A DNA stretch of 63,970 nucleotides, filler included, from Reclinomonas americana ATCC 50394 (Eukaryota): assembly GCA_048213135.1 (NCBI GenBank). It is 11 parts of 6 records of this genome, joined end to end, with 100 filler letters (N's around TTAATTAATTAA, not from the genome) between each part and the next. Parts side by side here need not be neighbours in the genome. Positions count along the whole stretch, not along the records: positions 1 to 15,715 come from PS015735.1; positions 15,816 to 24,784 come from PS015736.1; positions 24,885 to 32,264 come from PS015737.1; positions 32,365 to 37,154 come from PS015738.1; positions 37,255 to 39,526 come from PS015738.1; positions 39,627 to 41,840 come from AFZH01015331.1; positions 41,941 to 44,079 come from PS015739.1; positions 44,180 to 45,984 come from PS015739.1; 3 more parts are not named here. One strand, written 5' to 3'. The position numbers were made by a program, and so were the translations under genes. This document shows positions 2 to 63,287 of this stretch, in pieces; positions within the stretch are counted from its first letter, which is position 1, and each line of letters starts with the position of its first letter. Below the pieces are notes generated by a model, which worked only from the letters and a program-made list of their open reading frames with translations, was not told where the DNA came from and searched no databases.

Positions 2-2044
2 GTGCTCGATGCGCTGTCGCACGTACCGAATGCGCCTGTGCGCATCGATGTGAAGCGACCGAGTCGTGCGCTCAGCGACGAGCAGACCGAGTGGCGCGGT
101 GAGGTTGCCGTGCATGCGCGACAGGAGCGCCGGGAATTCGCGCAGCGCACAAGCGACGCAACGACGGCCTTCCGCACCAAGTGGCACTTGCCGGCCGCCA
201 ATCCGCCCATCGACACTGGCGAGTGGCCGGAGGGACCCCTCGCCCTGCCGCCCCCGCGACCGCGTGTGCCGTCGCCACCACCTGGCAGGGTGGAGCCTCC
301 GGAGGCGGCGTGGCACAGCGCCTGCACGCGCTGCTGGGTGCGCCAGTGCACCACCGCGTTCCGACCGTGCGGCCACGAAGTCATGTGTCGTGTTGCGTCG
401 TCGCCGCCTGTCGACTCCCGTGTCGTGGCGTGTCACNNNNNNNNNNNNNNNNNNNNNNNNNNNNNNNNNNNNNNNNNNNNNNNNNNNNNNNNNNNNNNNN
501 NNNNNNNNNNNNNNNNNNNNNNNNNNNNNNNNNNNNNNNNNNNNNNNNNNNNNNNNNNNNNNNNNNNNNNNNNNNNNNNNNNNNNNNNNNNNNNNNNNNN
601 NNNNNNNNNNNNNNNNNNNNNNNNNNNNNNNNNNNNNNNNNNNNNNNNNNNNNNNNNNNNNNNNNNNNNNNNNNNNNNNNNNNNNNNNNNNNNNNNNNNN
701 NNNNNNNNNNNNNNNNNNNNNNNNNNNNNNNNNNNNNNNNNNNNNNNNNNNNNNNNNNNNNNNNNNNNNNNNNNNNNNNNNNNNNNNNNNNNNNNNNNNN
801 NNNNNNNNNNNNNNNNNNNNNNNNNNNNNNNNNNNNNNNNNNNNNNNNNNNNNNNNNNNNNNNNNNNNNNNNNNNNNNNNNNNNNNNNNNNNNNNNNNNN
901 NNNNNNNNNNNNNNNNNNNNNNNNNNNNNNNNNNNNNNNNNNNNNNNNNNNNNNNNNNNNNNNNNNNNNNNNNNNNNNNNNNNNNNNNNNNNNNNNNNNN
1001 NNNNNNNNNNNNNNNNNNNNNNNNNNNNNNNNNNNNNNNNNNNNNNNNNNNNNNNNNNNNNNNNNNTGAAAAAACTTACTGTTTTGCATCACCGGGCAGG
1101 AATGTGCGACGGTGCTGATGGAGCAGCGCCCGGTGTGCCCCATTTGCCAGGCGGTGGTCAACCGGTTCGACGAGGACAGTGAGCGGTTCGGCCTGCACTT
1201 TGGGTACGAGGAGGCGGCGCGCAGACTGCCGCCGGAGGAGCTGATGCGTATCAAGCGAGACGAGCACTCGTGGGAGCTGCAAGTGGCGGACGGACCGCGC
1301 GAGGACGTCGCGGCCATGTCGACCCGCAGCCTGGCGCTCGTCATGTTGCAGGGTGTGGAGGAGCGGCATCGCACGACACGCGAAATGTACGGCGACAGCC
1401 ATCCGCAGACGCTGAACGCGCTGGTGGCGCTGGCCGACGCTCACCGCCGAGCCAAGCAGTACGACGTGGCGGCTGCCATGTACGAGCGGTGCCTGGAATC
1501 CAGGCGTCGTTCAGCGTCGGCCACCGCCGACACGGACGAGATTGTGTCGATCCTGTTTGCGCTGGCCGACGTGCGCCGATCGCAGAACCAGCTGCCGGAA
1601 GCCGCTCGTCTCTACCGCGAGTGCCTGCAGCTGCGCCGCGAGATTGAGCGCCGTGCTCTGGAGGCGGAGACGGCGGACGGCGACCACACCGTGTCGCTGC
1701 TCAAGGCCGACAAGTTGCGCGCCATGCAGGCGCTGGCCGACACGCTGCGGCTCATTGACGACCGCGACGCCCTGGAGGAGGCCGCCCTACTGAACGCCGA
1801 CTGCGTGGCGGAGCGAGTGGAGTTGCTCGGCGAACGGCACAACGACACGCTGGCGTCGCTGCGCGAACTCGGCATCACCTACTGCCGGCTCGGGCGGTTC
1901 GAGGAGAGCATCGAGACGCACCGCCGCCACTTTGACTTGTGCCGCGAGGTCTACGGCGCCGGCCATCGCGAGACGCAAAAGGCACTGTCGCTGCTATCGG
2001 CGGCGGTGGCTTACCGCGATGCAGGCGGCAGAGAGAGGCAGTGA
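2..2044 (+). CDS. RING-finger (C3HC4_3-type) + TPR_10/TPR_12 repeat protein, putative E3 ligase; 5' partial, one intron spanning the N gap
   Basis: CTRCWVRQCTTAFRPCGHEVMCR | ECATVLMEQRPVCPIC forms one RING when spliced 392-1099. It is followed by kinesin-light-chain-type TPRs (YGDSHPQTLNALVALA, LGERHNDTLASLRELGITY, YGAGHRETQKAL). Confidence 0.8.
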
Positions 2045-2495
2045 ATGAATATCAATTAATGATACAGAATGTATCGGTGTCGAGAATATCCGCAGCGATG
2101 CAAAGAGCGACGAAGTGAGTGTGTATGCTGATTCACGCTCACGAGGCACTCGCCCCCCTTGCAGCTGCAGCAACAGCGAAAGAGTGGCCACGATGATTAC
2201 GTGTGTTCGAAATTAGACAAGGTGCGTTCTCTTCACGGCCACACAGCCGCTGCCGCCACCGACTCGCCACCACAGCAGTGGTAGAGCAAGTATGCGCACA
2301 AGCCAGAGACACGGGGGAGAAGAAAAAGAAGGATCTGACAATCAATGACTTTTCAGACGCACAACTTCTCGCACTCTCTCGCACCCCCTCCTCTCTCTCT
2401 CGCCCCTGCTTGCTCACGTTATACCACCACGTGTGTCACTTTTTATTCACCGCACATTGACGGCACTCTCAACACACACACTCATTTGTTTCTCC

Positions 2496-3077
2496 TCACG
2501 AGGTCACATACAGCGACCCGCCACCCTTGATAAGGTAGCGCACATTCTGGTCCTCGATGACGATGCAGCCCTCGCTGGGGTTGGCGCCACAGCTGCCGCC
2601 ATGAATCAAGAAGCCGGAGCGGCCGCAGGCGTTGCCCGAGATCTGCGAGAGCGGGTAGCAGTACGCCATGCCCTTGAAGGTGGTCATCGAGCCGATGCGG
2701 TACGTGCCGCGTGGCAGCGGGCCCACGCCCACATCGCACTGGCACGAGGGGTTGTTGCGGCAACGGCCCGACTGTCCACTGCAGCCGTACACGTTGATCT
2801 GGCCCTTGTTGTCGAAGCGCGGGCCGGTGAAGTGGCCCGACGACTGGCTGTAGAAGTAGGCGTAGTCGGTAAGCGTCTGCTCGTCCACTGGCGGGAACAG
2901 CTCCTCCAGGGTCTTGTTGAAGAGCGCCATGGCGTTCGCCTCGGTCCACTCAAACTGACCCATGGGCGAGAAGTCGTCGCCGGCCGCGAAGGAGTTGGCG
3001 CTGAGGTCGTAGGCCGTGGCCAGCACGGTGGTCAGCGCGAGTGCGGCGATAAAGGTGAGCAGGAGACGAGCGCGCAT
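2496..3077 (-). CDS. Secreted Tlde1/DUF2778-family (L,D-transpeptidase-like fold) protein, intronless, 193 aa
   Basis: Signal peptide MRARLLLTFIAALALTTVLA. Family motifs YSQSSG, GCSG..G..RNNP, GPLPRGTYRIG, GRSGFLIHG and SEGCIV. Confidence 0.85.
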   Translation of the reverse strand: MRARLLLTFIAALALTTVLATAYDLSANSFAAGDDFSPMGQFEWTEANAMALFNKTLEELFPPVDEQTLTDYAYFYSQSSGHFTGPRFDNKGQINVYGCSGQSGRCRNNPSCQCDVGVGPLPRGTYRIGSMTTFKGMAYCYPLSQISGNACGRSGFLIHGGSCGANPSEGCIVIEDQNVRYLIKGGGSLYVTS

Positions 3078-4426: not shown

Positions 4427-5778
4427 ATGGGCTGCACTCCCAGCCTCCACATCCGCCAAGTAGGAGGCGCGACCACCATGGCCAGAAAACGAGTGATAGT
4501 GGCGGCGGTGACAGTGAACGTGGCGGCGACACCACAACACATGACGCCAGTGGCCGACAGTGGTGCGCTGCACCGCGACGAGCTGCTGCAGCAGAGTGCG
4601 CAGTGGGACGACGAGCCAGCACCACCGATGGTGCGTGTGTGTGTGAGAGAGAGAGAGGAGGCCTAGGGAGAGAAAAACTGGGTTGATTATCACTGCTCGG
4701 TTTCACTCATCTGATGTGCAGAGCACGCACACACGGGCGCGAAGCATGGCCTACACCACTCGCACCATGGACGACACAGCTGGCAGTGAGTGGACAGTGG
4801 GCTGCACCACCGAGTTGGTAACAATGGAAACCAGTCGCACGGATCACGAACGACGAAACCGACGACGCAGTTCAGCGTTTCCCGGGCGGCAGTTCAGCAC
4901 CGGTGGCGGTGACGGTGATGGCGACGATGATGATGATGACGACGGCGGCGAGCAGGTCGATGATGGCGACAACGATGGGGCGTTGTTTATGTGCGACGGC
5001 ACTGGCCAGTCGGTTTTTGACGTCGACGCGTGCAATAGGAAACAATCGGTCTGCACGCCGAACGGCAGCGAAAGAAAGGCCACGGCGGTTTCCATTAAGA
5101 CGAGTAGTGCGGCACGTATCGCTGTTGGTGGTGGCGGCGACGACACAGCAGGCGGTGATAATGTTGCGTACTCACCATGATCAAAAACTGCGCAGCTTGT
5201 CCGGCATCCCTGCTCACCTCCATTGGCATGTATAGGTGCGACCCACTGCAATGTCGGCGGTGCCGGTTATGCGGGCTCGCCGCGGACGGCAGCCGGTGAG
5301 GCTGGGCAGCAATGCACTGGGTGTTGGAGGACAGGCGGCGAGTGAGAGTGGCGGTGTGCATCGGTCCTCCTCGCCCGCGCCGGTGGCAGGCAGCAACCGC
5401 AGCGGCACGCCGGTGAAGAGCCTGATGCAAGCAGTCGGCAGCGACTCCAGCCGGAGAGAATCCATTTGCTCCATGTTGCGTGCCGTCATCATCGACACGT
5501 GCATCCGCACGCTCATCGTACGCTTACCGTTTGTGCAAACACATTGCAGTTTTTCGGCAAACAAGACCTGGCTGAGTGAGGACCTGCTGGTGAGCAGTGG
5601 TCTCAAGCAAACCGGATCGACACTGGCGTGCGATGACTACCGACCGCAAGCACCAGTGGACGCGGGAGCCGAACTGGTGCGTCTCGAAACCCGAATCAAT
5701 CAATGGATCGACACGCACGTCCTTGGCCCCGACGCGTACATGCACGACTACGATGCGCATGGTATCGCGGCCAGGTGA
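4427..5778 (+). CDS. Hypothetical protein with MGC N-terminus (possible myristoylation/palmitoylation), 3 exons
   Basis: ORFs join in frame across introns 4631-4721 and 5163-5235. No recognisable domain. Confidence 0.45.
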
Positions 5779-5839: not shown

Positions 5840-7295
5840 TTACACATCATACACTTGTATGTGTGGCACGTCGCGAATGCCAAAATCGCGATACGCGCGC
5901 TTGGCAAAGAGCTCCCACGCCTGTGTGAGAGTCTCCTTGATCGTCTCTATGGGGTATGTGTTGCTGGAGTCGGCGGCTGCCACAAAATACGGGTTTCCGT
6001 TTAGTCTGGCCAAACTGCATCGCCACAAGTGAAAAAAGGGATGAGAAGACGGAAGTGTGTTTGTAGAGAGAGGACCGCCCAACGCAACTGCATGTAGTTG
6101 GTGTAGTGTGGTCGTTCGCCGGAGAAGAGCTCGATCACCACCGACGCCGGATGCAAGTTCACAATGTTGACGAGGTTCGCACCATGCTCACCAATCAGTA
6201 CGCCCGCCGAGCAGTAAAAGAAGCGCGTCTGCTGACCCACGCTCCAACTATGGCGATTCGCAGTGAGCTACGACAGCAACAACAAGAAGGCGCACAATGG
6301 TCTCGCAACTTTTGCAAGTCCACCAGGCTGAGGGGAATCTTGCGGAACTTGGCAAACTCCATCACCGCGTCCACCACCTCCTGCTGATTCACGCCGGTGC
6401 GCTTGTGCCGAACGGTCCACACCAAGTGCGGCGGCTTTTCTTCCCTGCAATAATAATTCGTCAGCTCCACGTACTGCGTGTGCGTCGCCACCACTGCACG
6501 CAACTCCTTGCCCTTGCACATGCGCTGCGTGAGCTCGCTGGGCGACAGCAGCGGTTCGTCGTGTCGCAGGCCGGCCTCCGAACGCAGCAGAGCGTTGCGC
6601 GCTGCGGCGAATGCCCACGGAGTCGGCTCGCCGTGATACACATGATTCATGTGCTGGTGGCCGGCGCTATGGAACGGTACATACAAGCGCTCCGTCACCT
6701 CCAAGTCCTCGTCACCGGCACCACCACGCTCCTCCGCTGTGTGTGCAGGCAGGTGAGTGAGAAGACATTACTCTTTCTCTCTCCATCCACCAGCACGCAA
6801 CAAATGTTCCAGTTCTTGAACGCAAACTCGCGATACCGTCGCTGCACGCCACGGTACTCGACGTGAGGCTTCTCCAGCAACACGGGCAACGCAGCCACCC
6901 ACTTCGGCAGCTGCTCCAACAGACTGTGCCAGTAGTTGTAGTAGTACTTGACGTGGAGCGTGACCAGCTCGGCGAACTGTGGGTGATCGGGATCGGGCGA
7001 CCGGTCGGTGGGCGGCGCACCCAGGCGATCGCACAGCAAGTTCTCCGCCTCGTGTACTGCGCGTGCGAGCAAAGGATTGAGTGCACGTGGACACACAATA
7101 GAGGATGCGGCGAGTGAGAGTCGACGAAACATCTCTCCCATTGGTACATGGGCGCCGAGAGAATCAGAGTGCCGGGCATGGTGTGATCGTGAGGCAGAAT
7201 GATGATCTCGCCCTCCTTCAGCAGGTACACGTCGGAGTTGATGTCGCGCGGACTGATTTCCGCCAGACCCTGCGGCACAAACGCATGCGGTGAGA

Positions 7296-7347
<52 letters not shown>

Positions 7348-8456
7348 AGGAGGGGAGAGTTCCGCACGTGGTACGCCCAGTCTCCCGAGTACTCCCACGA
7401 GGCGTCGCGAGGGAATTCGACAGCAGACTCGCACAACTCGCGCGTAAAGTAATTGGGTCGCGCCGTCCACCCCAGGCCCATGGCCACAAAGTCCAAGTGC
7501 CTCCAGTTCTGCGCACAGGTAAGAAACAAAAAGAAGCTGCACGTGCAAAAAAAGAATGACAGACGAGCGCAACACTTGACTGCCATCGCGACAACACGTC
7601 GGCATTGGACTGGAGACGCGGGCACGTGTCGCGCGGATGCACGGTGCGTGGTGCGCCAAACACAAGTTTTCGGTTCTTGCCGGTCGGATCGCTGTACATG
7701 TGCGCCGCCGACTGGCTTGCACACTCGGAGAATGCGTATCGCACCTTGGCCAACTACGTAAAGTGAAGCACACACAAGTCAGCAAATAAAAACACCCCTC
7801 GCGCTCTCACAGCATCGCCTTGACACACAACACACACCGGGCACGCCACAATGTCATAGTACACAATGTACTCTTTGCGAAACGAGCCTGCTCGCTGGCA
7901 CTTGAGCACCTCGTGATTGTGTCGCAGCGACACTTGCTCCATCACCAACTGCTCTAGTTGCCACTGCACGCGCAACAACAACAACGACGTCCATCAACAT
8001 CGCGCGACTCGACTTGTACCTCAACACATGCATGCTTCAAACCGTTCGAGCAAGTCGCCGCGACTCCTCCCGCGCGCTGCCGCCCAGCATCTCCCCAAGA
8101 CACTTTTCCACATCGGTTCCACTCTGAAACACGGTGGCATCACTCGCAGCTGGCGTCGATGTCACCGCGGGTGGTGGTGGTGGTAGTGGAGGCACCGAGG
8201 AGAACACCTTGGCGCCCTCCAACGCACGCGACTCCCACGACTTCCACACTGCAGTCTGTGTGTACACCTCTAGTCGGTTCCCGCGATGCACACCACCACC
8301 GATCCACTGTTGTGTGGCGGCAGATGATGATGACGAGGAGGGCGGCAATCGCATGTAAAACATGACCAGCAGCACAGTGACTACGGCCACGGCAGCGATT
8401 GCGGTGCCGTAGAAGAAGAGTGGGGAGCGTGGTCCACCACGCCCCAGTGCCAACAT
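5840..8456 (-). CDS. Glycosyltransferase family 61 (DUF563), type II membrane protein, multi-exon
   Basis: N-terminal TM anchor (FYGTAIAAVAVVTVLLVMFY). NYWHSLLE motif and the C-terminal GT61 signature QQTRFFYCSAGVLIGEHGANLVNIV..VIELF. Confidence 0.75.
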
Positions 8457-8523: not shown

Positions 8524-8582
8524 ATGTGGTGGACCGCAGCAGTGCCGCGCATTGGTGAGTGTATGCCTGTGCGCGACTCACA

Positions 8583-8614
<32 letters not shown>

Positions 8615-9093
8615 GCACAGCGCGTCGGCTGTTCTCCTCTGCACCATCGGCAACCGAACTGAAGAAGCCCAAGCTGGTTATTCTTGGTTGCGTTGTCTCT
8701 CTCCCTCTCTCGTGCGCACAACGTTCTCTGGTGACTCACACGTCGCTGTGCAGGCACGGGTTGGGGTGGCTTCCGAGTGCTCAAGGTCGGTGCTGCATGC
8801 GCGTGCTGTGCGAGGAGGCTTGCATTTTGTTCACTGCTGCATGTGTGTGACAGGGCATTGACATGGACAAGTTCCGTGTGACTGTGGTGAGTCGCGTGTG
8901 CTGCATAACGCACACGGAGAGCAGCAACTGAATGGATGACACGTAGATCTCGCCACGTAACTTTTTCCTGTTCACACCACTGCTGCCATCGACTGTGACT
9001 GGTCTGTGTGTCTGTGAATGTCTGCTGTCTGCAAGCTGCCCCCACTGATCATTGTTGTTGCATGGTGCATAGGTGTTGTCGAGTTCCGGTGCG

Positions 9094-9124
<31 letters not shown>

Positions 9125-11249
9125 TGTTATAATGTGGACAACTCGCTCATGTGTGTTTGTTTAAATGTGTGCAGATCGATCACGGAGCCCGTGCGCTCGG
9201 CGCGACGTCAGCCGTTCAACTTTATCGGTATGCCTACCTACCAGTCACACTTCGCTGTCAGTGCTGCTTCTCACGTCGCGATGCATGCATCAGAGGCATT
9301 CGCCACCGATATCGACGTGGTGAAGCAGACGGTGCGATGCCAGTTGGATCGACCGCGAGAGCCCGGCGAGCACGGCTCGCAACCGTTTGACGTGCGATAC
9401 GACCAGGTGCGATGCATGCACAGTCGTAGCTATGAGCAAGCTTCCGCTCACAGTCGGCGACGCAGCTGGTCATCTCTGTCGGTGCCAAGAACTCCACGCT
9501 CAACGTCCCCGGTGTCAAGGAGTATGCGTGTCATCTGAAGGTGCCGCTGCGCATGCCCCTCGCCCTTCTTGTGTTGTGAAAGTGCTTACCGATGTGCGCA
9601 CAGGAAGTGCACGAGGGTTCGCGTTGCGCTTCAACCTGCGGATATCCGCGACAACTCACTGTCGCGTCTGCACAGCCCGCGCACTGCGGTACAAGATTTT
9701 GGACTTGTTTGAGCACGCCGCCGATCCCAATTTGACACAGCAGCAGCGCAAGGAGTTGCGCATGCCTCTTACATTCTCCACTCCTCCTGCCATGTCTCTC
9801 ACTCTCGGTCATGCAGTCTGCTCCATTTCGTCATTGTTGGTGGTGGAGTTGCGCTCGCACTGTCTGCTGCGTAAGCTCCCTTCCTGTTCCCTCGCTCACC
9901 ATACCGTGTGTCAGCCAACGGGCGTGGAGACTGCGGCCGAGGTCGCTGACATGGTCAGCGAGGATCTTCGTCGACTGTATCCCGATATTTGGCAAGACTG
10001 TGTCATCTCGTTGTTCGAGGTGCGCCGTCTTTCCTTCTTTCGTGTGTCGTCGTTTGCCAAGGGTTCGTCGCACAGGGTCGTGCACTGCTGAGTGCATTCG
10101 ACCAAGATACGCAAAGTTCCGTGTCTCGTGCTGCTCGCTTGTGATGTGTGGCCAGTGCTGACCGGACCGTCGATTGCAGCCTATGTGGAGAGGTCGTTGA
10201 AGCGTTCCAACGTCGACGTGCGCATTGGTGTGCGTGTCAAGGAGGTACGCGAGAAGGAAGTGATTCTTGGCGACGGCACCGTGGAGAAGTGTGGCATCAT
10301 TCTGTGGTCCACCGGTGAGTGTTGATTTTGGGTGCCCGCCTGCTCGCCGTCACTCTCGACCTGACCAATCGCACAGGCATTGCACCTCGCGATTCCGTGC
10401 GCGGTACGCAATTGCGCCATTGTGCCTGTCGTTCTTTTTTGTGTGTTTATTCTCTCTGCAGGGTTCAAGAACATCCCGAAGAACGAGCGAGGCATGATTG
10501 TCACAAACGAGTTCTTGCAGGTGACAACCATGGGCTCCGAGTGATAGCGGCGCGATCTCACTGCGTGCATCGCAGGTGGTTGATGCGGACGGCACGACGG
10601 GGATCAACGCCGAGGCGCGCGAGGCGCTGAACACGCGACGCAACGTCTACGCCATCGGAGACTGCGCCACGATTGTCGGACGACCGCTGGCTGCGACTGC
10701 GCAGGTGGCACAGCAGGAGGGCAAGGTTCGCCACCATTGCTGTGCCCGTGTTCTCCCCAGCTGTGTGTCGATGACATGTGTGCTGTATGTCAACAAAAGT
10801 ACGTGGCCAAGATCTTGAACCGCGGCGACAAGCAGCCACCGTTCTCGTTTATCAATCGCGGCATGCTGGCCTATGTGGTGCGAACGCGGTTGCTTCTTTG
10901 TTGCGTATGCAAGTCTGTGACTCTTCACATGCAGGGCGGCTACCGTGCGATCGCCGACATCCCCAGTGCCTCTGTCAAGTCCAGTGGCTTCATGTCGTTC
11001 CTCTTCTGGCGCTCCGCCTACCTTACCATGCTTGTGTCGCTGCGCAACAAGGTGGGCGCCGCCACAGACACGTTGATGGGTGGATGACTCTGCACTGACT
11101 GTTTCCGCCGACAGATCCTTGTACCCATTGACTGGACCAAGACTCTGCTCTTTGGGTGCGTCAACACAAACACACTCGTGCACTGAAATCATCCGTCCGT
11201 TCCCGTCCCTCACATCTCACATGACAGACGGAATACGTCGAAATTCTGA
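8524..11249 (+). CDS. Type II (alternative) NADH:ubiquinone oxidoreductase, mitochondrial; ~21 introns
   Basis: The spliced product has KPKLVILGTGWGG, ISPRNFFLFTPLLPST, FVIVGGGPTGVETAAE, VYAIGDCA, ATAQVAQQEGKY, FLFWRSAYLT and DWTKTLLFGRNTSKF*. Confidence 0.95.
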
Positions 11250-11292: not shown

Positions 11293-14200
11293 TCATTGTT
11301 GCCAGGTGGAGCGGTGCGCAAAGAACGTGGTACCAAATTGTCTCGGGGTAGAGCTAGATTCACCCGAAGCAGCACCACCGTCGGTTTTCACCGATCCTGT
11401 TCGTGCACGTGCCGACTGCACACGACTGCCTGCATTGGAGCTCCCCCTTGGTCTCCCGGCGTTGATGGCCAGAATCTGCTCGGCAGGCGATGGTGGCGAC
11501 CGCGGAGCCTGGAATGCTATGCCGCGCGATACATCAATAGGCCCCACAGCAGCCGCTCCTCCTCCTCCTCCTCCTCCTCCACTGCCTCCACCTGCTGTTG
11601 CTTTCCCGGCGCCTTGTCTGGACGACAACTGACCCGAATAGCCACTTGCCGCAGCCGTCTGCAGATCAAAGTGGAACTGCGGTGCCGTGTCTTCCACAGC
11701 GGAGGCGGTGCTGGCCACCGAGCTGCACTCCAGACGTCAGTGTGTGATTCGTCGTCGATGCACGACACGCAATTGTTGGGACTCACCCCGTTTCGTGTCG
11801 GTCGGTCGCTGTGTCAGCTGGCGGCGGTGGTGCTTGGCCCGTCGTGTTCCAGAACGTAATCACTCGGTTCAGCTCGGCGTCAAGTTGGAGCTGCCACCGA
11901 TAACACATGTGAGCGGAAGCCGCCAAAGGAGACACCACACGGAATGCACTCAACAATTTCCTCGCGCAGCTTTTGCGCTTCACGGCTATCACTCGGCACG
12001 CGGCGCAGCTTCTCGTGGCGCTCCTCCAACTGCTCCACCAGCAGCTTCACGCCCGGATCGATGAGTACAAGACTCTTGCGGTTGATGACCCCCGACATTT
12101 TCTGGTCACTGTATCATCATTCAACGTCAGTCGCCACACAAGAAGCTGCGGGCGTCCAGTGGCATTCGCAACTAGGTGTCAGTGGCGGGCGTCAAGTCGC
12201 GGACCTGTGCCTTCAGTCGATCGACTTGCATGCGAAGCGAGTGCAGCTCGCTCTGCAAATCAAAGTACTCCTTGCTGTGCGTCACAAGAGGAGGTTGAGC
12301 AACGACAGCCAACAGGACCATCGAGAGCAAAGGCACGTACCGAGGCAGCGCCACGACCTGGGAGTCGAACTGCTCCTGCGGATTACCCTGCCCCAACGCC
12401 ACCAGTTGCGATCGCAGTGCTTCCTTCTCGGCCCACGTTCGATCGATTTCAGACTCGGCTATCACGGCGAAAGGTGAGAACCAGGCGCACGCAGGTGAGG
12501 GAGCGACGCAGATCACGCACCCTTGATCAGCAGCATTCGCAGCTGATTTTCCCTGTATGCCGCACTCCGACCAAACTGCACCCACCCCAGGCATCACGGT
12601 GAGCGCACATCGAGTAAAATACAAGACGTACACGCACGCAGTCCACCTCTTTCATGCTTGTCGCGGCGCCCTCGACAAACCTCGTAAAGCACATTCGATA
12701 TACACTGGCCACATCGTTCTGCTGCTTTGGTCCATTGGCCTGAATATCACCACACACCCGCGTGAGTACCCGTGATTCTCACCATCTCCCGTCTTGCAGT
12801 CAGACACTGACTCACCAACATGTAAGTGATGGCCGTTGTCGCAGAGCGTTTCCACAACTCGGCGACCTCGTCTGCCACGGCAACTCCGTTGGGGCCAGCA
12901 GGCATCCGTGGCGACGAACCGGAGCCGCCAGCAGACGACTGCCGTTTCTCCTTCTTGCCCCCTTGCCGCTGTCGCTGCATGCTGGCCATCACCGAGGCTG
13001 CCGCCACGGCCACTGCCGTGTCTTTGAACGCTGGCAGAGTGGCACGCAGCGCAGTAGGTGTCACCAGGCTTCCGTTACCATGTTCAGCGCCGCCGTTCTC
13101 GCCACCGTCGTCGCCCTCGTCCTCGCTGTCGGCCGCAAACCCTTGCGGAGGTGCATTGCCCGAAAATTGTCGGCATCGACGGACGCTGTCGGCCAGAGGG
13201 AACTCGAGTAGACTCGCCACACCCTGTGTCAGTGCCTCGCGTTTCTCCTTGGTCAGCTGCTGCGACGCCGAGGAAGGCCGATTATTGGCTTTGCCGGCTG
13301 CGAAGAAGTGTCGGTTACACAGGCACAAACACAGCAGAAGTCAACATGCGACTACAACACACATGGGTCGGCGCTGTACGGGCGCATGTTGGCACGAGGT
13401 GTGTCGCGCTCGGCCGCATGTCTCTCATCATGTGGCCCTCCCGGCACGCTGCATCCGTCGCCAGTGAGCACTCGCGAAAATCGAGCGACGAAGGAAGAGG
13501 ACGAAACAGGTGGACAGTGGACGATGTGAGCCGTGGGCCAGGAGAGGGTATGGTGTTGTGCGGAACCACGCCCACCGGCGCAGACGACATGGCGAAAGAC
13601 TGCAACATTGGTCGCCTGCCACCAGAAGGCGATGCCGTGAGTTGTGGCGGTGGAGCCACGCGGGAATCCATCATGCCCTCATCGTCGGAGAGTGGTGCAG
13701 GTGAGCCGTCGTCGTCAAAGAACGGCGAGCCACGCATCATGTCGAGCGATTGCATCGGCATGCCCTCAACTGCCGAATAAAAAACATAAGCAAGCGTCGC
13801 ATCTGTTGCGTGCACGACACANNNNNNNNNNNNNNNNNNNNNNNNNNNNNNNNNNNNNNNNNNNNNNNNNNNNNNNNNNNNNNNNNNNNNNNNNNNNNNN
13901 NNNNNNNNNNNNNNNNNNNNNNNNNNNNNNNNNNNNNNNNNNNNNNNNNNNNNNNNNNNNNNNNNNNNNNNNNNNNNNNNNNNNNNNNNNNNNNNNNNNN
14001 NNNNNNNNNNNNNNNNNNNNNNNNNNNNNNNNNNNNNNNNNNNNNNNNNNNNNNNNNNNNNNNNNNNNNNNNNNNNNNNNNNNNNNNNNNNNNNNNNNNN
14101 NNNNNNNNNNNNNNNNNNNNNNNNNNNNNNNNNNNNNNNNNNNCATGCATGCACACCAGCTTGCAAAATACGCTCAATATGCGTTGTCTTGCTCGGGGGT

Positions 14201-15715: not shown

Positions 15716-15815
15716 NNNNNNNNNNNNNNNNNNNNNNNNNNNNNNNNNNNNNNNNNNNNTTAATTAATTAANNNNNNNNNNNNNNNNNNNNNNNNNNNNN
15801 NNNNNNNNNNNNNNN
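15716..15815. other. Artificial assembly spacer N-TTAATTAATTAA-N (recurs ~24829, 32309, 37199, 39571, 41885, 44124, 46029, 51549, 56369)
   Basis: Identical 12-mer with stops in all six frames, embedded in N runs. Confidence 0.97.
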
Positions 15816-16400
15816 GGACTGACTGTGTGCGTGTGGCCGACTGGGCATCAGCCAGGAAACGAGACCTCGCTCGCGCCCATCGGTGGCCAGCAGACTCCAG
15901 TAGTACATGTACGTCTCCTGCGGCATGTACGAGCGCACAATCGCAGCGTACGACGGATCCTCGAGAATCTGTCGCATGACTCGAATGCTGCAGAGGACGA
16001 TCAGATCTCTCTCTCTCTCGAAAAGGCGAGAAAAAAGAGCATGACACACCGGCCAGTGGACGCTGCTCGTTTGAGCGTGTGCAGCAGGAACGCCACGTCG
16101 ACATAGCCATGAAAGTTGGCGTACAGACGCTGCGCCAGCATCTCGGGAGCCATGGATGACGACGCACCCTCATCTGCCGCACCATACGCCACCTTTGCCG
16201 TCTCCAGCAACTGCTCAGACGCTTGCTGCTGAGTGCGTGTCGGCTGTGTGGAGACCACCGACGGCTGCTTGCGATGTTGCGTCGTCTTCAACGAGCTTGG
16301 ATCAGCAGCTGAAGCATTGGTGGGTGGTGCGACGGGGGCCAGAGTCGGCAGTGGGCTTGCTGCTGGTGCGCTCACTGGGAACTCCAGATCGAGGCCCTGA
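15816..16400 (-). CDS. Hypothetical protein fragment, 3' truncated by gap
   Basis: Exons LAQRLYANFHGYVDVAFLLHTLK and DLIVLCSIRVMRQILEDPSYAAIVRSYMP separated by a short intron. Confidence 0.45.
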
Positions 16401-16653
16401 TGTGTGCGTTAGTGTGTGTGTGTGTGTATGTGTGTTTCTGATGATAAATCAGACGACGCAACGGGCGCTGGTCGCAGCTCTGACTGCGACGATTGCTGGT
16501 AGATGCCAGAGTTCACCACGACACGTGACTGCATCTGTGTGGCTTCGCCTCTCTTCGTGTCGCAGGAACTGTGCGCCCACGCCTCCTCTCGTTCTTTGTT
16601 ATGTTGTGTTATTGGTGCATAGGACAAACGGCCAACGTTCGATTACATACATT

Positions 16654-47937: not shown

Positions 47938-49505
47938 TCATACGACCACCGTCGAGCGCATTGAACGGGGTGATTTTGATCGGAGTGACCTCGGTGATTT
48001 CTGCCGCCGCACCAGACTCATCACATCAGATGCTGCACCACCACACAGAGAGAGAGTCAGATAGTGGAGACGCGTGTGAGCTCACACGACTGCACGCACC
48101 CATGCTCATCAACTGGACGGTGCTGTCGACAGTGACCGAGTCGTGGCCGAGTGTGCGACCGGGTGAGTGCAGCATTTGTTCCACGGCCTTGAAGTATCTG
48201 CAACAGGAGACACACTTCCTTTCAGCACGGGTGGAAATGCAGCCGAAGAATATAAATCAACGCAACGTCTTCGGCAGAGGAGCCGGCTGCGGTGTGCCCT
48301 TGTCGCGCGGACTGGTGATGCGTCTGTCGCCCGGAATCATCGACTCGAAGAGCGGACCCACTTCTAGGTCTGGCGACCTCCGGCCGCGCATCTGGTTGGT
48401 GGCCACCATACCGTAGGTGGCCGAGTCGGGTGGGTTCTTGTACACGGGCTGCGGCAGGAATTCCGGCTTGTTGAAGGCTGACTCGGGTCGCGTGGCCGTG
48501 CGGAATTCAGCCGTGCCCTTCCACAGCGACTTGGTGACAGGCCGGATCGGCTCGTCGGGCTTCGCCTCCATCGGCGCCATGTGAATCACACCGTGCTTGC
48601 GAATCTCGTCGCGGATGCGTTCATCCTGTGTCCGCGGTCCGAAGCGGAACGGGCCGCGGATCTGCACGGCCGGCTGATCGCGTCGCAAGTCGTACACGGT
48701 GGGATGCAGCAGATTGCCGACATTCTGCTCATTCTGCGTAATGAGCCCGTACCGTGGCTGCTGAATGCGAACCTCATTGCTCTTCTCCACAGCGGCCACG
48801 CGCTCTCGTTCGGTCACATATCGACTCGGAGAGACGCACGAGTGAGCAATCTCCAAGTCGGGATTGCGATCCCGGAAGTGGTGGTGTGCCGGGTGCGCCA
48901 GCAGCAGAGCATCATTGAAACGAACTGCAACACACCGGGCGCGTCAACACGAGGACAGCCACAGGGGGAAAGGCGCGAGCTCGCTGTGGACAGAGGTGAC
49001 TGACCTCGAATGGTATCATTCGCCACCTGCTCCACAAACTTCTCCATGCGCTCTCGCGCCTTGGCCGCCAGCTGCTCCCGCTTGGACGAGTGACGCAACG
49101 ACGACGACGACGGTGACAGCGCAGTCACACTGCGCCCGGCCTCACTCGCCGCATCCCGCGCCTGCAGCTCTCCACCCGGACCATGAGTGCCCAAGCTCCT
49201 GTGTCGTACACCATGAGCGACAATGAGTGAGCAAGAGAAGCATGCGTGTGAGCAACGTACGTGTAGGCGCGTGACACGGGCGAGTCGCTGACTGCGGTGG
49301 AGAAGGCGCTGCCTGCGGGTGATTGTGGGTGTTGTTGTTGTTGTGAGGCAGCTGCTGTGTTGACTCTGCGACGACCGGCGACTGGATTGGCAGAGGTCGT
49401 TGTGCTTGGTGTTGTCATGTACTCTGCTTGCTGTTGCTGCTGTTCTCGTTGTTGTTGCTGTGCGGCCTCTTGGCGCCGCCGACGGATTTGATGTGCGTTG
49501 ATCAT
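47938..49505 (-). CDS. Hypothetical protein (possibly ciliary), multi-exon
   Basis: Exons join in frame: LRRDQPAVQIRGPFRFGPRTQDERIRDEI ... PKTYFKAVEQML ... KSPRSLRSKSPRS. Confidence 0.5.
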
Positions 49506-49719: not shown

Positions 49720-52214
49720 TCATCGCGCGACCAGGGCATTGGCGCGTCGCAGCTTCTCCTTGAGGGCGCTGTGCAATTAACAACAAGGCAACAACAAGCA
49801 GAACAACATTACTTGTCAGCTGCGTGAAAGAGAGCGACTGCGACAGGGGAATTGTTTCGCACCGGATTTGGCTGAAAATGGCGGTAAGCAACTGCTTGAC
49901 TTGGGCCAGCAGTTTGGTGCGGCCGGCAAAGCAGTCGCGCAGCTCAAAGTACCGTCGCTGGGAGTAGTCGTTGAAGGCGTGCAGAGCTTGGATGTCGCTC
50001 TGCATTTGCTGGTAGCTGCGAAACGGGAGGAAACGGTCGGAATAATGTGTGCGAAAAGACAAGGAGCGTTCAGGTACAACGCAACGTTTCCCACTGCAGT
50101 CGCTGGATGCGGAGCATGGCGTCGTCCTGGATGATGGTGTCGAGAATGTGCGAGACTGCTGCGGCACCGGGTCCGACAGCGGGCGGGGCGAATTCGTCTG
50201 TGTGCACAACAACGCGATCAGCATGGTGGTCACAGGTCGGTCACACGCAGAACGGGGCGGCCACCACACCTTGCTCCAGCGACGATGGTTCGGCCGTGTC
50301 GTCGGTAGTCATGTGATCCGCAGGCTGTGGCGGCGGAACGGACGTTTGCCCGCGATTGGGTGGTGGTTCGGCGGCTGCCGATGCCGTGGCCGCAGCAAAC
50401 GATGCGGCAGCGGCGGAGAGTCGCTCGCGTTCAGCAGCTGCCGCCTGTTTCTTGGCAGCTTCGGCGGCGGCTTCGGCTTCTGCTGCTGCGGCGGCGGCAG
50501 CGGCCTCGGCCTCGGCTTTCGCAGCCGCCTCGGCAGCCGCGGCTTGTTCGCGCGCACGCGCGGCGGTCATCTTGCGATGTTCGAGCTCGGCCGGGTTCTC
50601 CTGCGCGCCCTGCTGCATCCGGCGCAATTCCTCCAGCGTGTAGCCGCGTCCTTTGGAGTTACGCTTGCCATCGGTGGCGGTGGTGGTGGTGGCGGCTGCA
50701 GCAGAGGCGGAAGGTGTGAATGAAATTGGCGCGGCGCGCGCAGGCGGCTGAAATGCCGAAGCGGGAGCTGAAGCAGCAGCAGATTGAGCGGCAGCAGCAG
50801 GAGCAGGTGGAGCAGGAGCCGGTTGTGCAACGGCGGGCAGCACAGAAGCAGCTGGCTGTGCCACGGCGACAGGCTGCGCCACAGCAACAGCAGGAGCTGG
50901 CGGAACTGAAGCAGCTGGCTGTGCCACCGCGACAGCAGCGGCAGGTGGTGGAACAGGCTGCGCCGCGGGTTGTACTGGAACTGGAGCTGGGGCTGGGGCC
51001 GGTGATTGCGCCAAAGCAGCAGCAGGAGCAGCGGCAGGAGCAGCGGCGGCCGGAGCAGCAGCAGCAGCAGCAGCAGGAGCAGCAGCAGCAGCAGCAGGAG
51101 CAGGAACAGCAGCAGCAGCAGGAACAGCAGCAGGAACAGCAGCAGGAACAGCAGCAGCAGGAGCAGCAGCAGCAGGAGCAGCAGCAGCAGCAGCAGCAGG
51201 AACAGCAGCAGCAGCAGAAGCAGCAGCAGGAGCAGCAGCAGCAGGAGCAGCAGCAGCAGGAGCAGCAGCAGGAGCAGCAGCAGCAGGGGCAGCAGCAGGA
51301 GCAGGAGCAGCAGGAGCAGGAGCAGGAGCAGCAGCAGGAGCAGCAACAGCTGCTGATGGCTGCGCTGGAGCAGCAGCAGGAGCAGCAGGAGCAGGAGCAG
51401 CAGGAGCAGGAGCAGCAGCAGCAGGAGCAGCAGCAGCAGCAGGAGCAGCAGCAGCAGGAGCAGCAGCAGGAGGAGCAGCAGCAGCAGCAGGAGCAGCAGC
51501 AGGANNNNNNNNNNNNNNNNNNNNNNNNNNNNNNNNNNNNNNNNNNNNTTAATTAATTAANNNNNNNNNNNNNNNNNNNNNNNNNNNNNNNNNNNNNNNN
51601 NNNNCAGGAGCAGCAGCAGCCGCTGCTACTGGCTGCGCTGGAGCAGGGCGGGAGCAGCAACAGCAGGCAATGCTGGAGCAGGAGCAGCGGGACTAGGAGC
51701 AGGCCGCACAACAGCAGGAGCAGCAGCAGGCGGCTGCGCTGCGGACACCGGCTTCGCATCTTCAATCACCACTGTCGTCGTCGCTGTCGTCGTCACCACC
51801 GCTGCCTCCTCCTCGTCCTCTGCCACCTCACCAGCAGCCTCCACAGTCTCCTCGTCATCCACTCGACTCTTCTCACCTGCCTCTTCCTCCTCCTCCTCCT
51901 GATGTTGAATGCTCGTCAAACACAAGTGACACACACACACATCAATCACACACGCATACCTCTATTGGTGGTGGCGGTGGTGGTGGTGGCGGAGGTGCTA
52001 GTGACGGTGCTGCCGGAGTCGCCACAGCCACTGACACTGGCGCTTTCACAGAGGGTTTCGGTGGCTTGCTCTCCACTGCGGGTTGTGGTGGAGGCGGAGC
52101 AGGTGCATCAAAGGAACGCGGTGTCAAGCCAAAGTCATCGTCGTCGATGACTGCCTGGCGCTTGGTGGCCTTGCCTCCTCCACTGCCACTCTTCTTCTTG
52201 CCTTTGCCACTCAT
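49720..52214 (-). CDS. KxDL-domain (KXD1/BORCS4-like) protein with very long Ala/Pro-rich linker; gapped
   Basis: C-terminus LHAFNDYSQRRYFELRDCFAGRTKLLAQVKQLLTAIFSQIRALKEKL matches the KxDL pattern. Start MSGKGKKKS. Confidence 0.65.
51010..51504. repeat. Coding (GCA/GGAGCA)n repeat encoding (A)nP on the minus strand
   Basis: CAG/GAG-CAG tandem array inside the KxDL gene; breaks the assembly. Confidence 0.9.
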
Positions 52215-56542: not shown

Positions 56543-59276
56543 TCAATCGGCTCCTCCGCGATTGCGTGGATGTCCGCGGTTTGGAGGTGGCGTCGAAGCC
56601 GACGCCGGTCGCTGTTGCACGTGTCTGACGCGGAAGGGTGAGCAGAGTGCCCAACTGTACATGTCACTGGGAGCAATACAATTCGACGCAACTGGCTCAT
56701 CTTTTGCACGGTGCGACTGAACTCCAGCACCGGAGGGGAACGCTCCAAGTCGGCCCACGTGCGCGACGCACCCGCCATCCTGCCGGCGCATCACATTGTT
56801 AAGTCTCAGCTCAGCTTCTTCGTGATTCACGAGCTACACACACCAGCCATCTTCGGTACGCGTCCGTCCCAACGAGGCGACCTCGGCACGCCTTCTGGCC
56901 AACTCCACACGCGGGCCCTCCAACGCTTGCTGGTACTCAACCGCGCTGGCTGGATCGTCGTCGGCGACAGTCGGCAAAAAGTGCACAGACACCTCACTGC
57001 TGCCACGCGCTGCACACCGCAACAGCGTGTGAGGCCAGCACAACTGACGCGCGTCACCTCTACGCCACGAACCAAACGAGGTGTGCTGCAGCACCGAGTT
57101 CAGGTAGCGGCGCACGTCTTGGTGGTGTGTCGACGAAGAGTAGCGATCGCCGCGGGTGCGGTTCATCAGAAAAGCTGTGGTGCCAGTCAGGTGTGCACAC
57201 CACACGACGAGCACACGGCGATTCAACGCAACAGACACTGGCACGATGCTTGGGAGGCACCTCAGAGAGCATGTCGGCGCGAATGAGGAGCCGCAAAACA
57301 GCGTCGTCCCACGGCTGATCGAGCACCACAAAGACGTGGTGGCAGGTGGAGAGCAAGAAAATGGCCAGTTGAAGCGACTGGCCAGCGACACGGATGTGAG
57401 GGCAGGGAAGGAAGCATAACACGCAGACGACCAGCTGCGACGCAACATGCAGTTCGACGACATTCTCCAGCGACCCAGCCTCGTCGATCAGCTCCACATC
57501 CCTCTTTAGCAGCGAGTACAGCAACGAGACACTCATCAGTGGCTGAGAGAGAGAGAGAGAGGGGAGAGAGTGAGATACATAATCTTTGCATGCGGGTTCA
57601 AGCACCTCACCTGTGAGTCCAACACAAAGAGACGATCGCGATTGATGCACATGTCGACACCGTCGGTGCCGTGCTGTGACGCCACCATGTCGGCGGCCGT
57701 CTGCATCTTGAACCACAACGAACGCTGCAATCACATCACAATGAGTGCGACGAGAGGCACGATCGAGAAAGATCCAGGCACACACACACACACACACACC
57801 GGCACATCGGCCAAGCAGGTGGCTACGAACGACTTGCCGCTGCCCTGTGCGCCGAGAACGCCGACAACCTGAAACTCGGTGTTTCTCTGGCTCACAAACG
57901 GTTTCCAGTGGTCACCCATAAAGTGCATGTCGCTTCCGATGAGACTTCGCTGTGCCAGTGGCAGCGACTCGCCGCTGACCCACACACGTGTCTGGCCGGC
58001 ATCGTCTTTCGTTACAGTCACAGGTGGCGACACGGCCGTGCCATGCACCTCTGCGAGAGGGAGAGTCGGATACGGAACAATGTCAATGTGCAAACACGCA
58101 CCACACACCCACCTCCATCAGCCGGCAACTCTTCCAAGTAGTCGGCATCGCCACCTGCCGCACCGGCTCCCAGGGAAGACGATGGCTGCAACGAGGCACC
58201 GCTGCCGCTGCCACTGCCACCGGCTGCAGACTGCGAGGCACCAGGTGGTCCTTTGCGAGCGCGTTGCCGGTCGCGTCGCGTCTGCTTCTTGGGCGACACC
58301 ATCGCATTCCCGGCACCACCTTCGGCGTTGCGCGACGAGGGGCGCGGAGGAACACGACCCATGCCATGCGGGCCTGGGTGCGGCACATTGGACGGCAGAA
58401 CGGGTCGCGGAGCAGCCATAACCGGTGGCTGTGGTGGTGGTGGCGGTGGTGGCGGCGGCGGTGGTGTAGGATCAGACACGGCAGCGGCCGCAGCCGGCGC
58501 TGCGAGTCACTGATGAGAGAAAGAGTCGTGGCAGCAGCGAAGCGATGCATACCAGGTGGTCGCGGAAGCACTCGTCGCATGGCGCCACCATCCTCGTCAC
58601 CAGCACCGGCAGCCGGCACTGCAGCATCAACCGGACGACGCTCCTTTCGCCGTCGCCCTCCACGCGCCAAGCCTGCACGTGCACGCCACACCATGAGCAT
58701 CGTCGACACGCATTCACCATTGCAACGAAAAAAAACACTCACCAGGCGGTCCTCGCATCGGCGGTGGCGGTGTCTGCGATGCCGGAGGAGGAGGAGCAGC
58801 AGGCATCGGCCTCGCAACAACCGCAGGAGCACTGGTGGGTCGGAACTCAGGCACCGCCAACAGCGACGCCACTGCCTCGGCATTCGCCTGCCCGAATGCA
58901 CACTCAGTCACCTGACCAAAACACTGAGGAGAACGCGCGCAAGTACCTCACGCTTGAGCAACGAGAACGCCGTCGAAGGCAGCGGCCGCATCATGCCCTT
59001 GTGCGAGAGAGAGAGAATGAGCAGCAGCAATCACACATGCACACACACACACGCGTACTCACTGATGATGCAGGTGGTTGAAGAGGAGGCGGAGGTGCTG
59101 CTCGTCGTCGCCGATAGTCGCCCTCACTATCCTCCTCGGCATCGTCCTCCTCGCGTCGCTGCCTGCCGCCTCCTCCGCGACCCACTGAGAATGCAATGTG
59201 AGTGAACATGGAGCACACAGAGAGAAGACAGAGGAGAAGACAGACCTTTGCGGCGCGCGGCCACAAGATCGCTCAT
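56543..59276 (-). CDS. SMG9: Nonsense-mediated decay factor SMG9
   Basis: FQVVGVLGAQGSGKS, HGTDGVDM..RLFVLDSQPLMS, ELHSLQLAIFLLSTCHHVFVV and TE..W...ASRTW..LERS, preceded by a Pro/Gly-rich N-terminus. Confidence 0.85.
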
Positions 59277-59326
59277 TGCGCGCGTGAGAAGAGGATGACA
59301 CAAATTTTCAAGTCACTCTCTTCGCA

Positions 59327-61418: not shown

Positions 61419-61678
61419 GATCCAAGAGTATGCTACTGCTAACACACACCTTCAGTTCCTCACCGCGTTCGTGCACACAGAAACACCGAGTACGACGCCA
61501 ATGTGAATACGGTGGCATGAGGATGAATAACAAGAGTACAAAAGGAACCATGTTGTTATTTCTGTTCTCTTTTCCCATCATCATTCCCGACTCCACGGGC
61601 TGCGTGGTGAAAGGATGTTGAGTAAGCAGTGTGTGTTCAAGGCAGCAAAATGCTCAGGCAGTACCTGCATCACAACAA

Positions 61679-63287
61679 TCATCTGCCGTAACCGTAGCCG
61701 CCGGCGCCCGGAGGATAGCCCGGTGGCTAGAGAGGCAAGTCAGGCGCAAGAGAGATAGAGACAAAAAGGGAAAGCACTCACCATCACTTGTGAGCCGTGA
61801 CCGCCCGGTGGCGCCACCTGTGTCACACATCGTCATTGATCATCATCACGTACACTCGACAAGGAGACAGCAAAATAACGCACTGGGGGGTAATACGGCT
61901 GTGGTGGTTGCACTTGCGACATTGGTGGCTGCGCTTGCTGTGGCGGTTGCACCAGCGGCAGCATGGCCGCGCCATGCCCGTAAGCGTGCATGCCGGCGCC
62001 GGGAGGAGCGACACCAGCACCCAGCGGAGCAAAGCCCGGTGCCGGCGGCGGCGGGGACATTGCGAAACCAGGCCGCCCCGGAACTGGCATGCCTGGCACC
62101 GCGGCACTAAAGCCGCCCGCGCCGTGCGACACGTGCAGTGGAGACGAGAAAGCGGGCGGAGCCACAGAAGAAGCGCCGCCACCAACTCGTGGCGCATATC
62201 CCGAGTAGCCGTGCGGCTCAGGTGGGGACACGCTGCCGGCCGCCCTCGCTTGACTTGCGTCTACCATCTCCCAGCTTTCGTCGGCGCCGCCATCAGCCTC
62301 GGCAGCGTCTCCCCGCGGAACACGCTCCAGCAGCTCGTCCAGCGAGAACGTCTGGTCATTGCCATCCGCTCCGAGAGGGAACAGTTCATCAAACTGCAGC
62401 TAGAGTGTGAGCAGTCGCCGATCGGCGATACTTTTGTGACGCACGCAACTTGCTGCGCAAACACGGTGGTTGTCGGCATGTCAAAGCTGACAAAGCGCAC
62501 TTGGGTGATCTGCGTGGTCTCGCGGTGTCGTGCATAGTACTCCACGACGCTGTCCAGCAGCGCCTCGGCCGACACGACCTTGGGCACGCCAAAGATGCCA
62601 CTGCTAATGGCCATGAACGACACCGTCTTCAGCTTCTCCTCGTCGCACAGCCGGAGCACCGAGTGCGCACACTGCCGCAGCAGTCGTCGGCACTCTGCAG
62701 GCGTGTGATCCGACCAGCGCGGTCCGACCACGTGCACAACGCGTCTGCACGGCAAGCGACCGCCAGTAGTCGACATGGCCTGTTCGTTCGAGCATGAGAT
62801 GGTGAGGAAAGAGGAGGCAGGAGGCAGAAGGAGACGAAGGAAGGAGGAAAGTACCGTGCCGACGGCCAGGCGACCCGTCCGCTGTCTTCTCAGCCATGTC
62901 GAGCACTCCGTGTCGATATCCCTGCCTCCCTTGTCGACAATCATGCGAGCAACGCCTGTGCGTGAGAGCGAGTGAGCGAGTGAGTGAGTGAATGAATGAG
63001 AAAGAGGCATTGATGTTCACGCACCGCCGCCGTGATTGAGATCCTCATTTGCCGCATTGACAATGGCGTCGACATCCTCCGAGGTAATGTCGCCGTCACG
63101 GATCTTTGTGTGCGCGCGTGTGTGTGAGAGAGAAAGGGAGAGGGAGAGTCTGACGACAGCCGTATCTCATGCAACACACCTGCAAGTAGCGATTGTGTGA
63201 GGTGCGCAGCTGGCGCACGATGAGACTCTCGCTGCCGTCGTCCGCCGAGTTGGACACCATCTCCTGTGAGGAGCTGACGTTGCCCAT
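61679..63287 (-). CDS. Macrodomain (MacroD/Appr-1''-p-processing type) protein with MG N-terminus and Pro/Gly-rich tail
   Basis: GDITSEDVDAIVNAANEDLNHGGGVARMI, TTGGRLPCRRVVHVVGPRW and VSFMAISSGIFG. Confidence 0.9.

Follow-up and report, generated by a model that had tools for sequence, protein, structure and literature searches.

How an intron can begin one base out of step with the consensus 5′ splice site is the question raised by a stretch of DNA from Reclinomonas americana ATCC 50394 (GCA_048213135.1), analysed here over its whole length of 63,970 bases ("the window"). A preliminary description of this window had noticed many introns that start with GTTGCG and had called them a common donor class, a consensus donor shifted by one nucleotide. 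We find with high confidence that the GTTGCG(T) donor class is real, and it accounts for about 13–21% of the predicted introns in the window. The introns concerned are genuine major-type introns (GT-AG, with a CTNAY branch) of an intron-rich, gene-dense protist, and W/GUUGCGU (a slash marks the splice junction throughout) forms an abundant 5′ splice-site class of its own. For the register in which these sites are read, and for the RNA that would read them, we infer a displaced helix with a U1-type arm, a reading that we weigh below against its alternatives.

GTTGCG at intron starts

GTTGCG was present at all 20 coordinates of the preliminary description, on the strand claimed, and the accompanying tallies were exact (+7 base: T 16, C 4; −1 base: A 10, T 7, G 2, C 1). 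The bare hexamer was not enriched in the window, with 77 copies against 66.0 ± 7.5 after shuffling, and 10 of 100 shuffles reached 77. The heptamer GTTGCGT was enriched (33 copies against 15.5 ± 3.9), a count reached by none of 100 shuffles. Among its 33 copies, 18 were well-supported intron starts and five were less certain ones.

Introns were predicted with a purpose-written gene finder whose codon log-odds were trained on Pfam-supported stretches. Acceptors were AG dinucleotides, with a generic bonus given for YAG and for a CTNAY branch, and introns could be 40–220 nt long. A first pass that allowed GC donors and had no 3′ model was dropped as too noisy; a GC3 filter on open reading frames was also dropped, as it gave no discrimination. 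In the donor-agnostic pass, every GT was allowed as a donor without a donor score. A second pass followed after retraining, for which codons, the composition of introns and a smoothed table of donor hexamers were used.

The donor-agnostic pass placed GTTGCG at the start of 11 of 84 predicted introns, ahead of GTGCGT (5) and GTGTGT (4). As 0.95% of the 8,102 GT sites are GTTGCG, this corresponds to a binomial p of 5.6e-10. In the retrained pass, 21 of 102 introns began with GTTGCG, followed by GTGCGT (12), GTGAGT (9), GTTCGT (6) and GTGTGT (6). GTTGCG was the commonest donor hexamer in both passes, in line with the earlier claim that it is a common donor. The share of hexamer copies that served as predicted donors was 27% for GTTGCG, 12% for GTGAGT and 10% for GTGCGT. 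The retrained model included 14 of the 20 sites listed earlier and seven new ones, and inspection of the remaining GTTGCGT copies yielded two more, at 36307 (−) and 50085 (−). The nine further GTTGCG donors are therefore 5475 on the plus strand and 57232, 16462, 12172, 6801, 6309, 6088, 36307 and 50085 on the minus strand. In a search for k-mers enriched upstream of loose branch-plus-AG anchors, TTGCGT ranked second with weak z-scores, the anchors being too permissive.

Homology fixed several of these junctions. Removing the GTTGCG introns restored both the reading frame and a conserved protein in Ras, at two junctions of NDH2, in the ARIH1 numbering of an Ariadne-type gene and in a DM10 profile; GTTGCG sites without homology support rest on frame and coding score. 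The Ras intron (32870..32940, +; GTTGCGT, 71 nt, −1 A) was found by both models. Its spliced product aligned without a gap through YSALRDQ/YMRSG to four of four homologues (133–138 identities over 179–187 columns). With the donor placed instead at the in-phase GC 3 nt downstream, a gap was added and the score fell from 710 to 699.

NDH2 (8524–11087, +) is split into at least 17 exons, among them exons of 16, 31, 32 and 33 nt, and our hand model of 17 exons forms a single open frame of 431 codons. Against P0001, the only homologue compared, 149 of 383 columns were identical, and the segment QQRKD/LLHFVIVGGG/PTGVETAAEV was gap-free over two GTTGCGC introns of the retrained model, 9755..9816 (62 nt, −1 A) and 9848..9914 (67 nt, −1 A), which flank a 31-nt exon. 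The third NDH2 member, 8687..8753 (GTTGCGT, 67 nt, −1 G), joins KLVILG to TGWGGF in the hand model. P0001 lacks the N-terminus, and this junction is based on the open frame and on a glycine-rich motif.

In the Ariadne-type RBR ligase, both models placed a GTTGCGT intron at 31678..31750 (+; 73 nt, −1 T). Residues 1–65 of the 66 in the upstream exon matched human ARIH1 (4kbl_A) 205–270, and residues 2–19 of the downstream exon matched ARIH1 273–290 (E 0.15, a weak match), so that the numbering continues across 31678 with no residue lost or gained. Thus, of the junctions that had been described as forced by invariant motifs, alignment upholds those in Ras, NDH2 VGGG/PTGVE and Ariadne, and NDH2 VILG/TGWG is supported by the frame and the glycine-rich motif. 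In the EFHC-like gene, the retrained model gave a GTTGCGT intron at 38507..38575 (+; 69 nt, −1 G); the match to positions 2–29 of the DM10 profile stops three residues short of the exon end, and positions 34–96 start at residue 2 of the next exon. In the SMG9-like gene, the exon after the retrained-model intron 57378..57446 (−; GTTGCGT, 69 nt, −1 T) matched human SMG9 304–350 from residue 1 onward (E 0.006–0.013). SMG9 chains were the sole matches of this downstream exon, which fixes the acceptor side only, and a homology search with the upstream exon gave nothing meaningful.

Grammar of the GTTGCG sites and their possible reading by U1

To describe the class, we compared 27 GTTGCG sites (21 modelled and six from the earlier list) with 38 ordinary GTNNGT donors. 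The base before the cut differed sharply. At GTTGCG sites it was A in 13, T in 10, G in 2 and C in 2, whereas ordinary donors had G in 29, T in 4, A in 3 and C in 2; for G at −1, this is 2/27 against 29/38 (Fisher p = 2.8e-8). The contrast is independent of the model, because exon bases were not used in donor scoring. Before 50 non-donor copies of GTTGCG, the base was C in 19, T in 15, A in 10 and G in 6, so that A is enriched (13/27 against 10/50) and C depleted at the donors. Among phase-0 members, the last codon ended in A or T in six of eight cases (AAT, GGA, GAT, CAA, CAT and AGT), compared with 24% of third positions (p = 0.0035). The synonymous −1 position thus seems to be under selection. 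At +7, T was found in 21 sites, C in 4 and A in 2, and five of the six sites without T at +7 had A at −1, which is suggestive.

The interior of the motif was also tight. Donors of the form GTTNNGT had GC at NN in 15 cases, TC in two and GA in one in the retrained pass (GC 8, TC 2 and GA 1 in the agnostic pass), while ordinary GTNNGT donors had GC in 12, GA in 9, GT in 6 and TC in 6. As heptamers, the extra-T class comprised GTTGCGT 15 times, GTTTCGT twice and GTTGAGT once, far tighter than the ordinary class. GTT itself was invariant over all three intron phases (8/5/8) and is therefore not coding.

The remaining features of these introns matched those of other introns in the window. Their lengths ranged from 50 to 83 nt (median 66), and all modelled members had GT at +1/+2 and ended in AG, the finder permitting GT..AG only. 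A CT.A[CT] motif was present in 21/21 modelled members, at a median of 17 nt from the 3′ end, and the motifs CTCAC, CTGAC and CTTAC resembled those of ordinary introns and lay at a similar distance. The commonest branch-like motif was CTCAC, not CTAAC or CTGAC, in 12/21 introns of the GTTGCG class and 10/38 of the ordinary class. GTTGCG introns were spread over 14 of 31 multi-exon models, with ordinary donors in the same genes.

Does the class read as a shifted consensus? Slid by one base, GTTGCGT agrees with the local GGTGCGT at six of seven positions, and it can be read as G/GTGCGT with the cut one base upstream. To this extent the earlier description of a consensus donor shifted by one holds; the NN spread, far tighter than in ordinary donors, does not follow from a plain shift. 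The accompanying proposal that the +1 G takes the place of the −1 G fits the loss of G at −1.

Pairing was evaluated with nearest-neighbour duplex energies, using the textbook U1 arm AUACUUACCUG as given in extracts of PMC4856993. The mean energy was −1.2 kcal/mol for the GTTGCG class, −6.4 for ordinary donors and −2.8 for 400 random GT sites of the window. In the predicted fold, G+1 lay on C9 in only 3 of 21 class members. Stable, adequate shifted pairing was thus not obtained with AUACUUACCUG, although the organism's own U1 may differ. Since random GT sites pair better with the textbook arm than the class does, a standard U1 pairing in the shifted register fails to explain how these sites are selected. 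With a hypothetical arm in which UU is changed to GC, the class reached −7.3 kcal/mol against −5.7 for random sites, and with one complementary to GUUGCGU, −11.4 against −4.8. An Rfam search of the window recovered no small nuclear RNA (snRNA) gene and nothing at gathering score; at E ≤ 0.1, it gave two mir-598-like matches and one isrG-like match only, all far under the gathering scores.

We favour a displaced register, one base into the intron, read by a U1-type arm, and we give this reading about an even chance. With G missing and A favoured at −1, the helix is most simply placed one base further in. The near-strict GCG(U), together with the failure of the textbook arm, leads us to a reading arm other than ACUUACC; we find it more likely that the organism's own U1 carries a GC-adapted arm, or that a variant U1 is used, than that ACUUACCUG does the reading. 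In this model, the snRNA recognition helix would lie one base deeper in the intron than at the local G/GUGCGU site. G+1 would sit where the −1 G normally pairs, opposite U1 C9, and the −1 base would face the next arm base, U10, which would favour A. GCGU at +4 to +7 would do the job of the ordinary GCGU at +3 to +6, and the cut would be placed at the sole GU, as in the human shifted register. A shifted site would have one more mismatch than an ordinary site and would need every remaining pair, which could explain the tightness of the motif.

Several observations weigh against this account, some bearing on the class itself and others on the displaced helix. Every count rests on one purpose-written gene finder, which mis-calls micro-exons and left 12 of the 38 ordinary introns without a branch motif. 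Its 3′ score rewards branch motifs, so the 21/21 figure is partly built in. The retrained pass favours hexamers that are already frequent and can overstate GTTGCG, which makes the count from the agnostic pass the conservative one. The 146-nt NDH2 intron 9530–9675 probably conceals one more small exon, because the P0001 alignment has an 8-residue gap there. All junctions come from predicted models and homology, and the single 64-kb window is perhaps not typical of the genome. As to the helix, G at −1 is also scarce before non-donor GTTGCG copies (6/50), the T at −1 in 10/27 sites is unexplained by pairing with U10, and the compensation between −1 and +7 falls short of significance at these counts. 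Nearest-neighbour energies leave out U1C and other proteins. Few RNA sequences are as conserved as the U1 5′ arm, which makes it a strong claim that this arm is altered here.

The alternative that survives best is a second recogniser dedicated to this class. It would be a variant U1, possibly joined by a U6 variant, with an ACGCAAC-like arm, fully complementary to GUUGCGU, that would serve these sites only and leave GTNNGT to the ordinary U1. The seven near-invariant bases, tighter than the ordinary class, would suit such an RNA, as would the C at +5 in 17 of 18 GTTNNGT donors (+4 C in 18 of 38 ordinary donors), for which the textbook arm has no G. The class also pairs less well than random sites with the standard arm, and the fully complementary arm separates it clearly from random GT sites. 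These hypothetical-arm energies, however, are a what-if rather than data, Rfam detected no such RNA within the window, the 3′ signals are those of other introns, and the two donor classes stand side by side in the same genes. We therefore consider a dedicated recogniser rather unlikely, though it is the strongest of the alternatives.

A textbook U1 could instead pair with one U, at +2 or +3, bulged out. GUUGCGU is indeed GUGCGU plus one U. It resembles sites of the human bulge +2/+3 register, which are canonical but for an extra U after GU, and in human cells both the shifted register and one-base bulges have been proven by suppressor U1 experiments (extracts of PMC4856993). A bulge at +2/+3 would nevertheless keep −1 opposite C9 and retain the −1 G:C9 pair, which a class nearly devoid of −1 G does not show; the absence of this G disfavours a simple bulge. 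Similar ratios of GA to GC would also be expected with and without the extra T, but GTTGAGT:GTTGCGT is 1:15 and GTGAGT:GTGCGT 9:12. The predicted pairing is, in addition, very weak, and we regard this mode as improbable.

We judge equally improbable that recognition is largely independent of U1 pairing, with proteins, U6 or U5 reading GUUGCGU and the likeness to the consensus being incidental. The very weak standard-arm pairing and the unexplained −1 A/T preference are in keeping with it, but specificity for seven bases, one of them a base-specific C, is found more typically in RNA–RNA pairing, and no protein or RNA candidate was seen.

That the class is an artefact (chance GTTGCG copies near real donors, GC-AG introns cut as GTT/GCGT, mobile-intron copies or U12-type introns) is largely refuted and very improbable: the bare hexamer is not over-represented and an in-phase GC lies at +4 of every site, chosen at four of them by the first pass that permitted GC, but GTTGCG is strongly enriched at intron starts, its GTT is invariant in every phase, the 3-nt shift costs Ras a gap, an extra residue would fit neither NDH2 nor the ARIH1 numbering, a blastn-short comparison of 21 intron bodies with one another gave only 8–10 nt matches (best E 0.036), and neither the donor, which is not RTATCCTT, nor the CTCAC branch, as in other introns, is of the U12 type.

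Intron inventory and gene content of the window

The other introns of the class begin with GTTGCGT unless stated otherwise. On the plus strand, the retrained model gave 5163..5235 (73 nt, −1 T; CTCAC branch, TAG end), the new 5475..5549 (75 nt, −1 T) and the weakly supported GTTGCGC intron 39872..39941 (70 nt, −1 A), after which the last exon has three codons only. Both the agnostic and the retrained models contained 27540..27609 in the kinesin-3-like gene (70 nt, −1 T), 44632..44693 (62 nt, −1 A) and 44832..44896 (65 nt, −1 A). Three further plus-strand sites, 392..436, 19901..19972 and 44044..44079, run into N gaps and are known as sequence only.

On the minus strand, both models included 62400..62449, after the Macro domain exon (50 nt, −1 A), the new GTTGCGA introns 12109..12172 (64 nt, −1 A) and 6248..6309 (62 nt, −1 A), and the new introns 6737..6801 (65 nt, −1 T) and 6006..6088 (83 nt, −1 A), the latter in a GT61-like gene. 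The retrained model alone supplied 57175..57232 in the SMG9-like gene (58 nt, −1 T, new), 23111..23173 in the ThiF-family gene (63 nt, −1 T), 16397..16462 (66 nt, −1 C, new) and the GTTGCGC intron 7509..7573 (65 nt, −1 T). Two new introns are likely: 50016..50085 (70 nt, −1 C), with 51 codons upstream and 170 downstream and both coding scores positive, and 36246..36307 (62 nt, −1 T), with 180 codons upstream, 121 downstream and a CTCAC branch. The candidate at 48198..48266 (69 nt, −1 C) is plausible, with 225 open codons upstream and 56 downstream; unspliced, its frame hits a stop 10 nt on. The case for a coding intron at 56625..56692 is weak, as just 26 codons follow and their coding score is negative; this site could lie in an untranslated region.

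Other donors that look displaced were present in the retrained model, at 7057–7130 (−), 38788–38856 (+), 11891–11954 (−) and 39119–39186 (+). Two are GTTTCGT and one is GTTGAGT, all with an extra T and preceded by T; they look like GTTCGT and GTGAGT shifted by one base, and an aag/GTTTGCGC donor looks shifted by two. The 8-exon gene at 5840–7942 (−), which carries four GTTGCG introns, had no Pfam match on long frames; one of its exons, of 52 residues, resembled the end of Glyco_transf_61 (E 5.5e-4, under the curated cut-off). Within a coding exon of this GT61-like gene, at 6445–6504 (−), a stretch of exactly 60 nt runs from GTTGCGT through CTGAC to TTGCAG, in frame and open. The stretch could be an intron of the GTTGCG class that is optional or retained, or simply exon.

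The window is eukaryotic, with dense genes and many introns, about 47–60% G+C and 3,642 N across 31 gaps. Gene identities came from Pfam profiles run on its stop-to-stop frames. On the plus strand these were a TPR protein (1.1–2.0 kb), NDH2 (8.5–11.1 kb), Kinesin-3 (24.4–29 kb), the Ariadne-type RBR ligase (30.8–32.1 kb), Ras (32.4–33.4 kb), UVSSA (33.5 kb), the DM10/EFHC-like flagellar protein (37.7–39.5 kb), a kinase (41 kb) and a choline-transporter-like gene (60–61 kb). Those on the minus strand were Rsa3 (17 kb), the ThiF-family gene (23 kb), Pex19 (29–30 kb), the Macro domain protein (62–63 kb) and the 3′ end of TCP1-alpha (63.5 kb), together with the SMG9-like protein (57 kb), identified by a profile or homology match.

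The top named match of the TCP1-alpha exon was from the jakobid Seculamonas ecuadoriensis (79%). The Ras protein had a top database match of 79% and the NDH2 exon a single database match of 34%; the DM10 exon, searched in the ESM Atlas, yielded the family only. Metagenomes were scanned for Ras genes that share the intron and donor of the Ras gene here, with no match, and a scan with the DM10 exon gave one locus at 46% identity and no close relative. Andalucia godoyi is intron-poor, with introns in 12% of 864 genes according to extracts of PMC7050145.

Other features of the window were noted in passing. An intron-less frame at 2499–3215 (−) matches the Tlde1 domain (E 1.9e-11) and sits in the lowest-GC stretch of the window (47%); this domain is known mostly from bacteria. 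An inverted duplication at 51605–55427, with arms of ~1.8 kb that are 92–98% complementary in seven blocks, is centred on the N gap 53264–53637, and mirror-image gene models were predicted on its arms. Either a true palindrome or an artefact of the assembly could account for it. The pattern N44-TTAATTAATTAA-N44 makes up thirteen gaps (for example 15716–15815, 24785–24884 and 44080–44179), with stops in all six frames of the TTAATTAATTAA linker, and there are also plain gaps of 20 N or 167–630 N.

Known splice-site registers and the meaning of the class

The closest precedent is the shifted (+1) U1 register, described for rare 5′ splice sites in humans (Roca and Krainer 2009, via extracts of PMC4856993). 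As in the GTTGCG class, the cut there falls at a GU whose G pairs in place of the −1 G, the remaining consensus lies one base downstream, and the −1 G is lacking, as in the test oligonucleotide ACA/GUCAAGUAUA. The two differ in the intronic part, GCGU here and AAGU in human shifted sites, and the GTTGCG class, unlike the human sites, pairs poorly with the textbook arm. They differ also in frequency. In the extracts of PMC4856993, all human noncanonical registers together cover ~2% of sites (4,270 sites); here, a single heptamer class makes up ~13–21% and is the commonest donor. We found no description of a GTTGCG/GUUGCGU donor class in the literature searched, which had most subscription journals outside its scope.

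U12-type introns offer another parallel. Like the GTTGCG class, they form a second class in the same genes, with a tighter 5′ motif and no preference for G at −1. They carry an RTATCCTT donor and a TCCTTAAC branch near the 3′ end. GTTGCG introns lack this donor and have no TCCTTAAC-like branch, their branch motif and its distance being those of the ordinary class. Nor do they resemble introner-like mobile introns, as they are not alike along their length.

A practical consequence is that gene finders trained on GTRAGT-type donors would mis-annotate about one-fifth of the introns in this genome. If a dedicated second recogniser did read GUUGCGU, two recognition classes of major-type intron would exist side by side in individual genes. 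This would be a genome-wide natural split of 5′ splice sites, distinct from U2/U12 and parallel at the 5′ site only. More generally, U1 registers with a displacement or a bulge are known solely from humans, as an uncommon rescue mode (~2% of sites for all noncanonical registers, extracts of PMC4856993). An organism in which such a site is the commonest intron start would be a natural system for asking how the cut is set independently of the U1 helix, how U6 handles a G shifted from +5 to +6, and whether the near-invariant U1 arm can co-evolve with splice sites.

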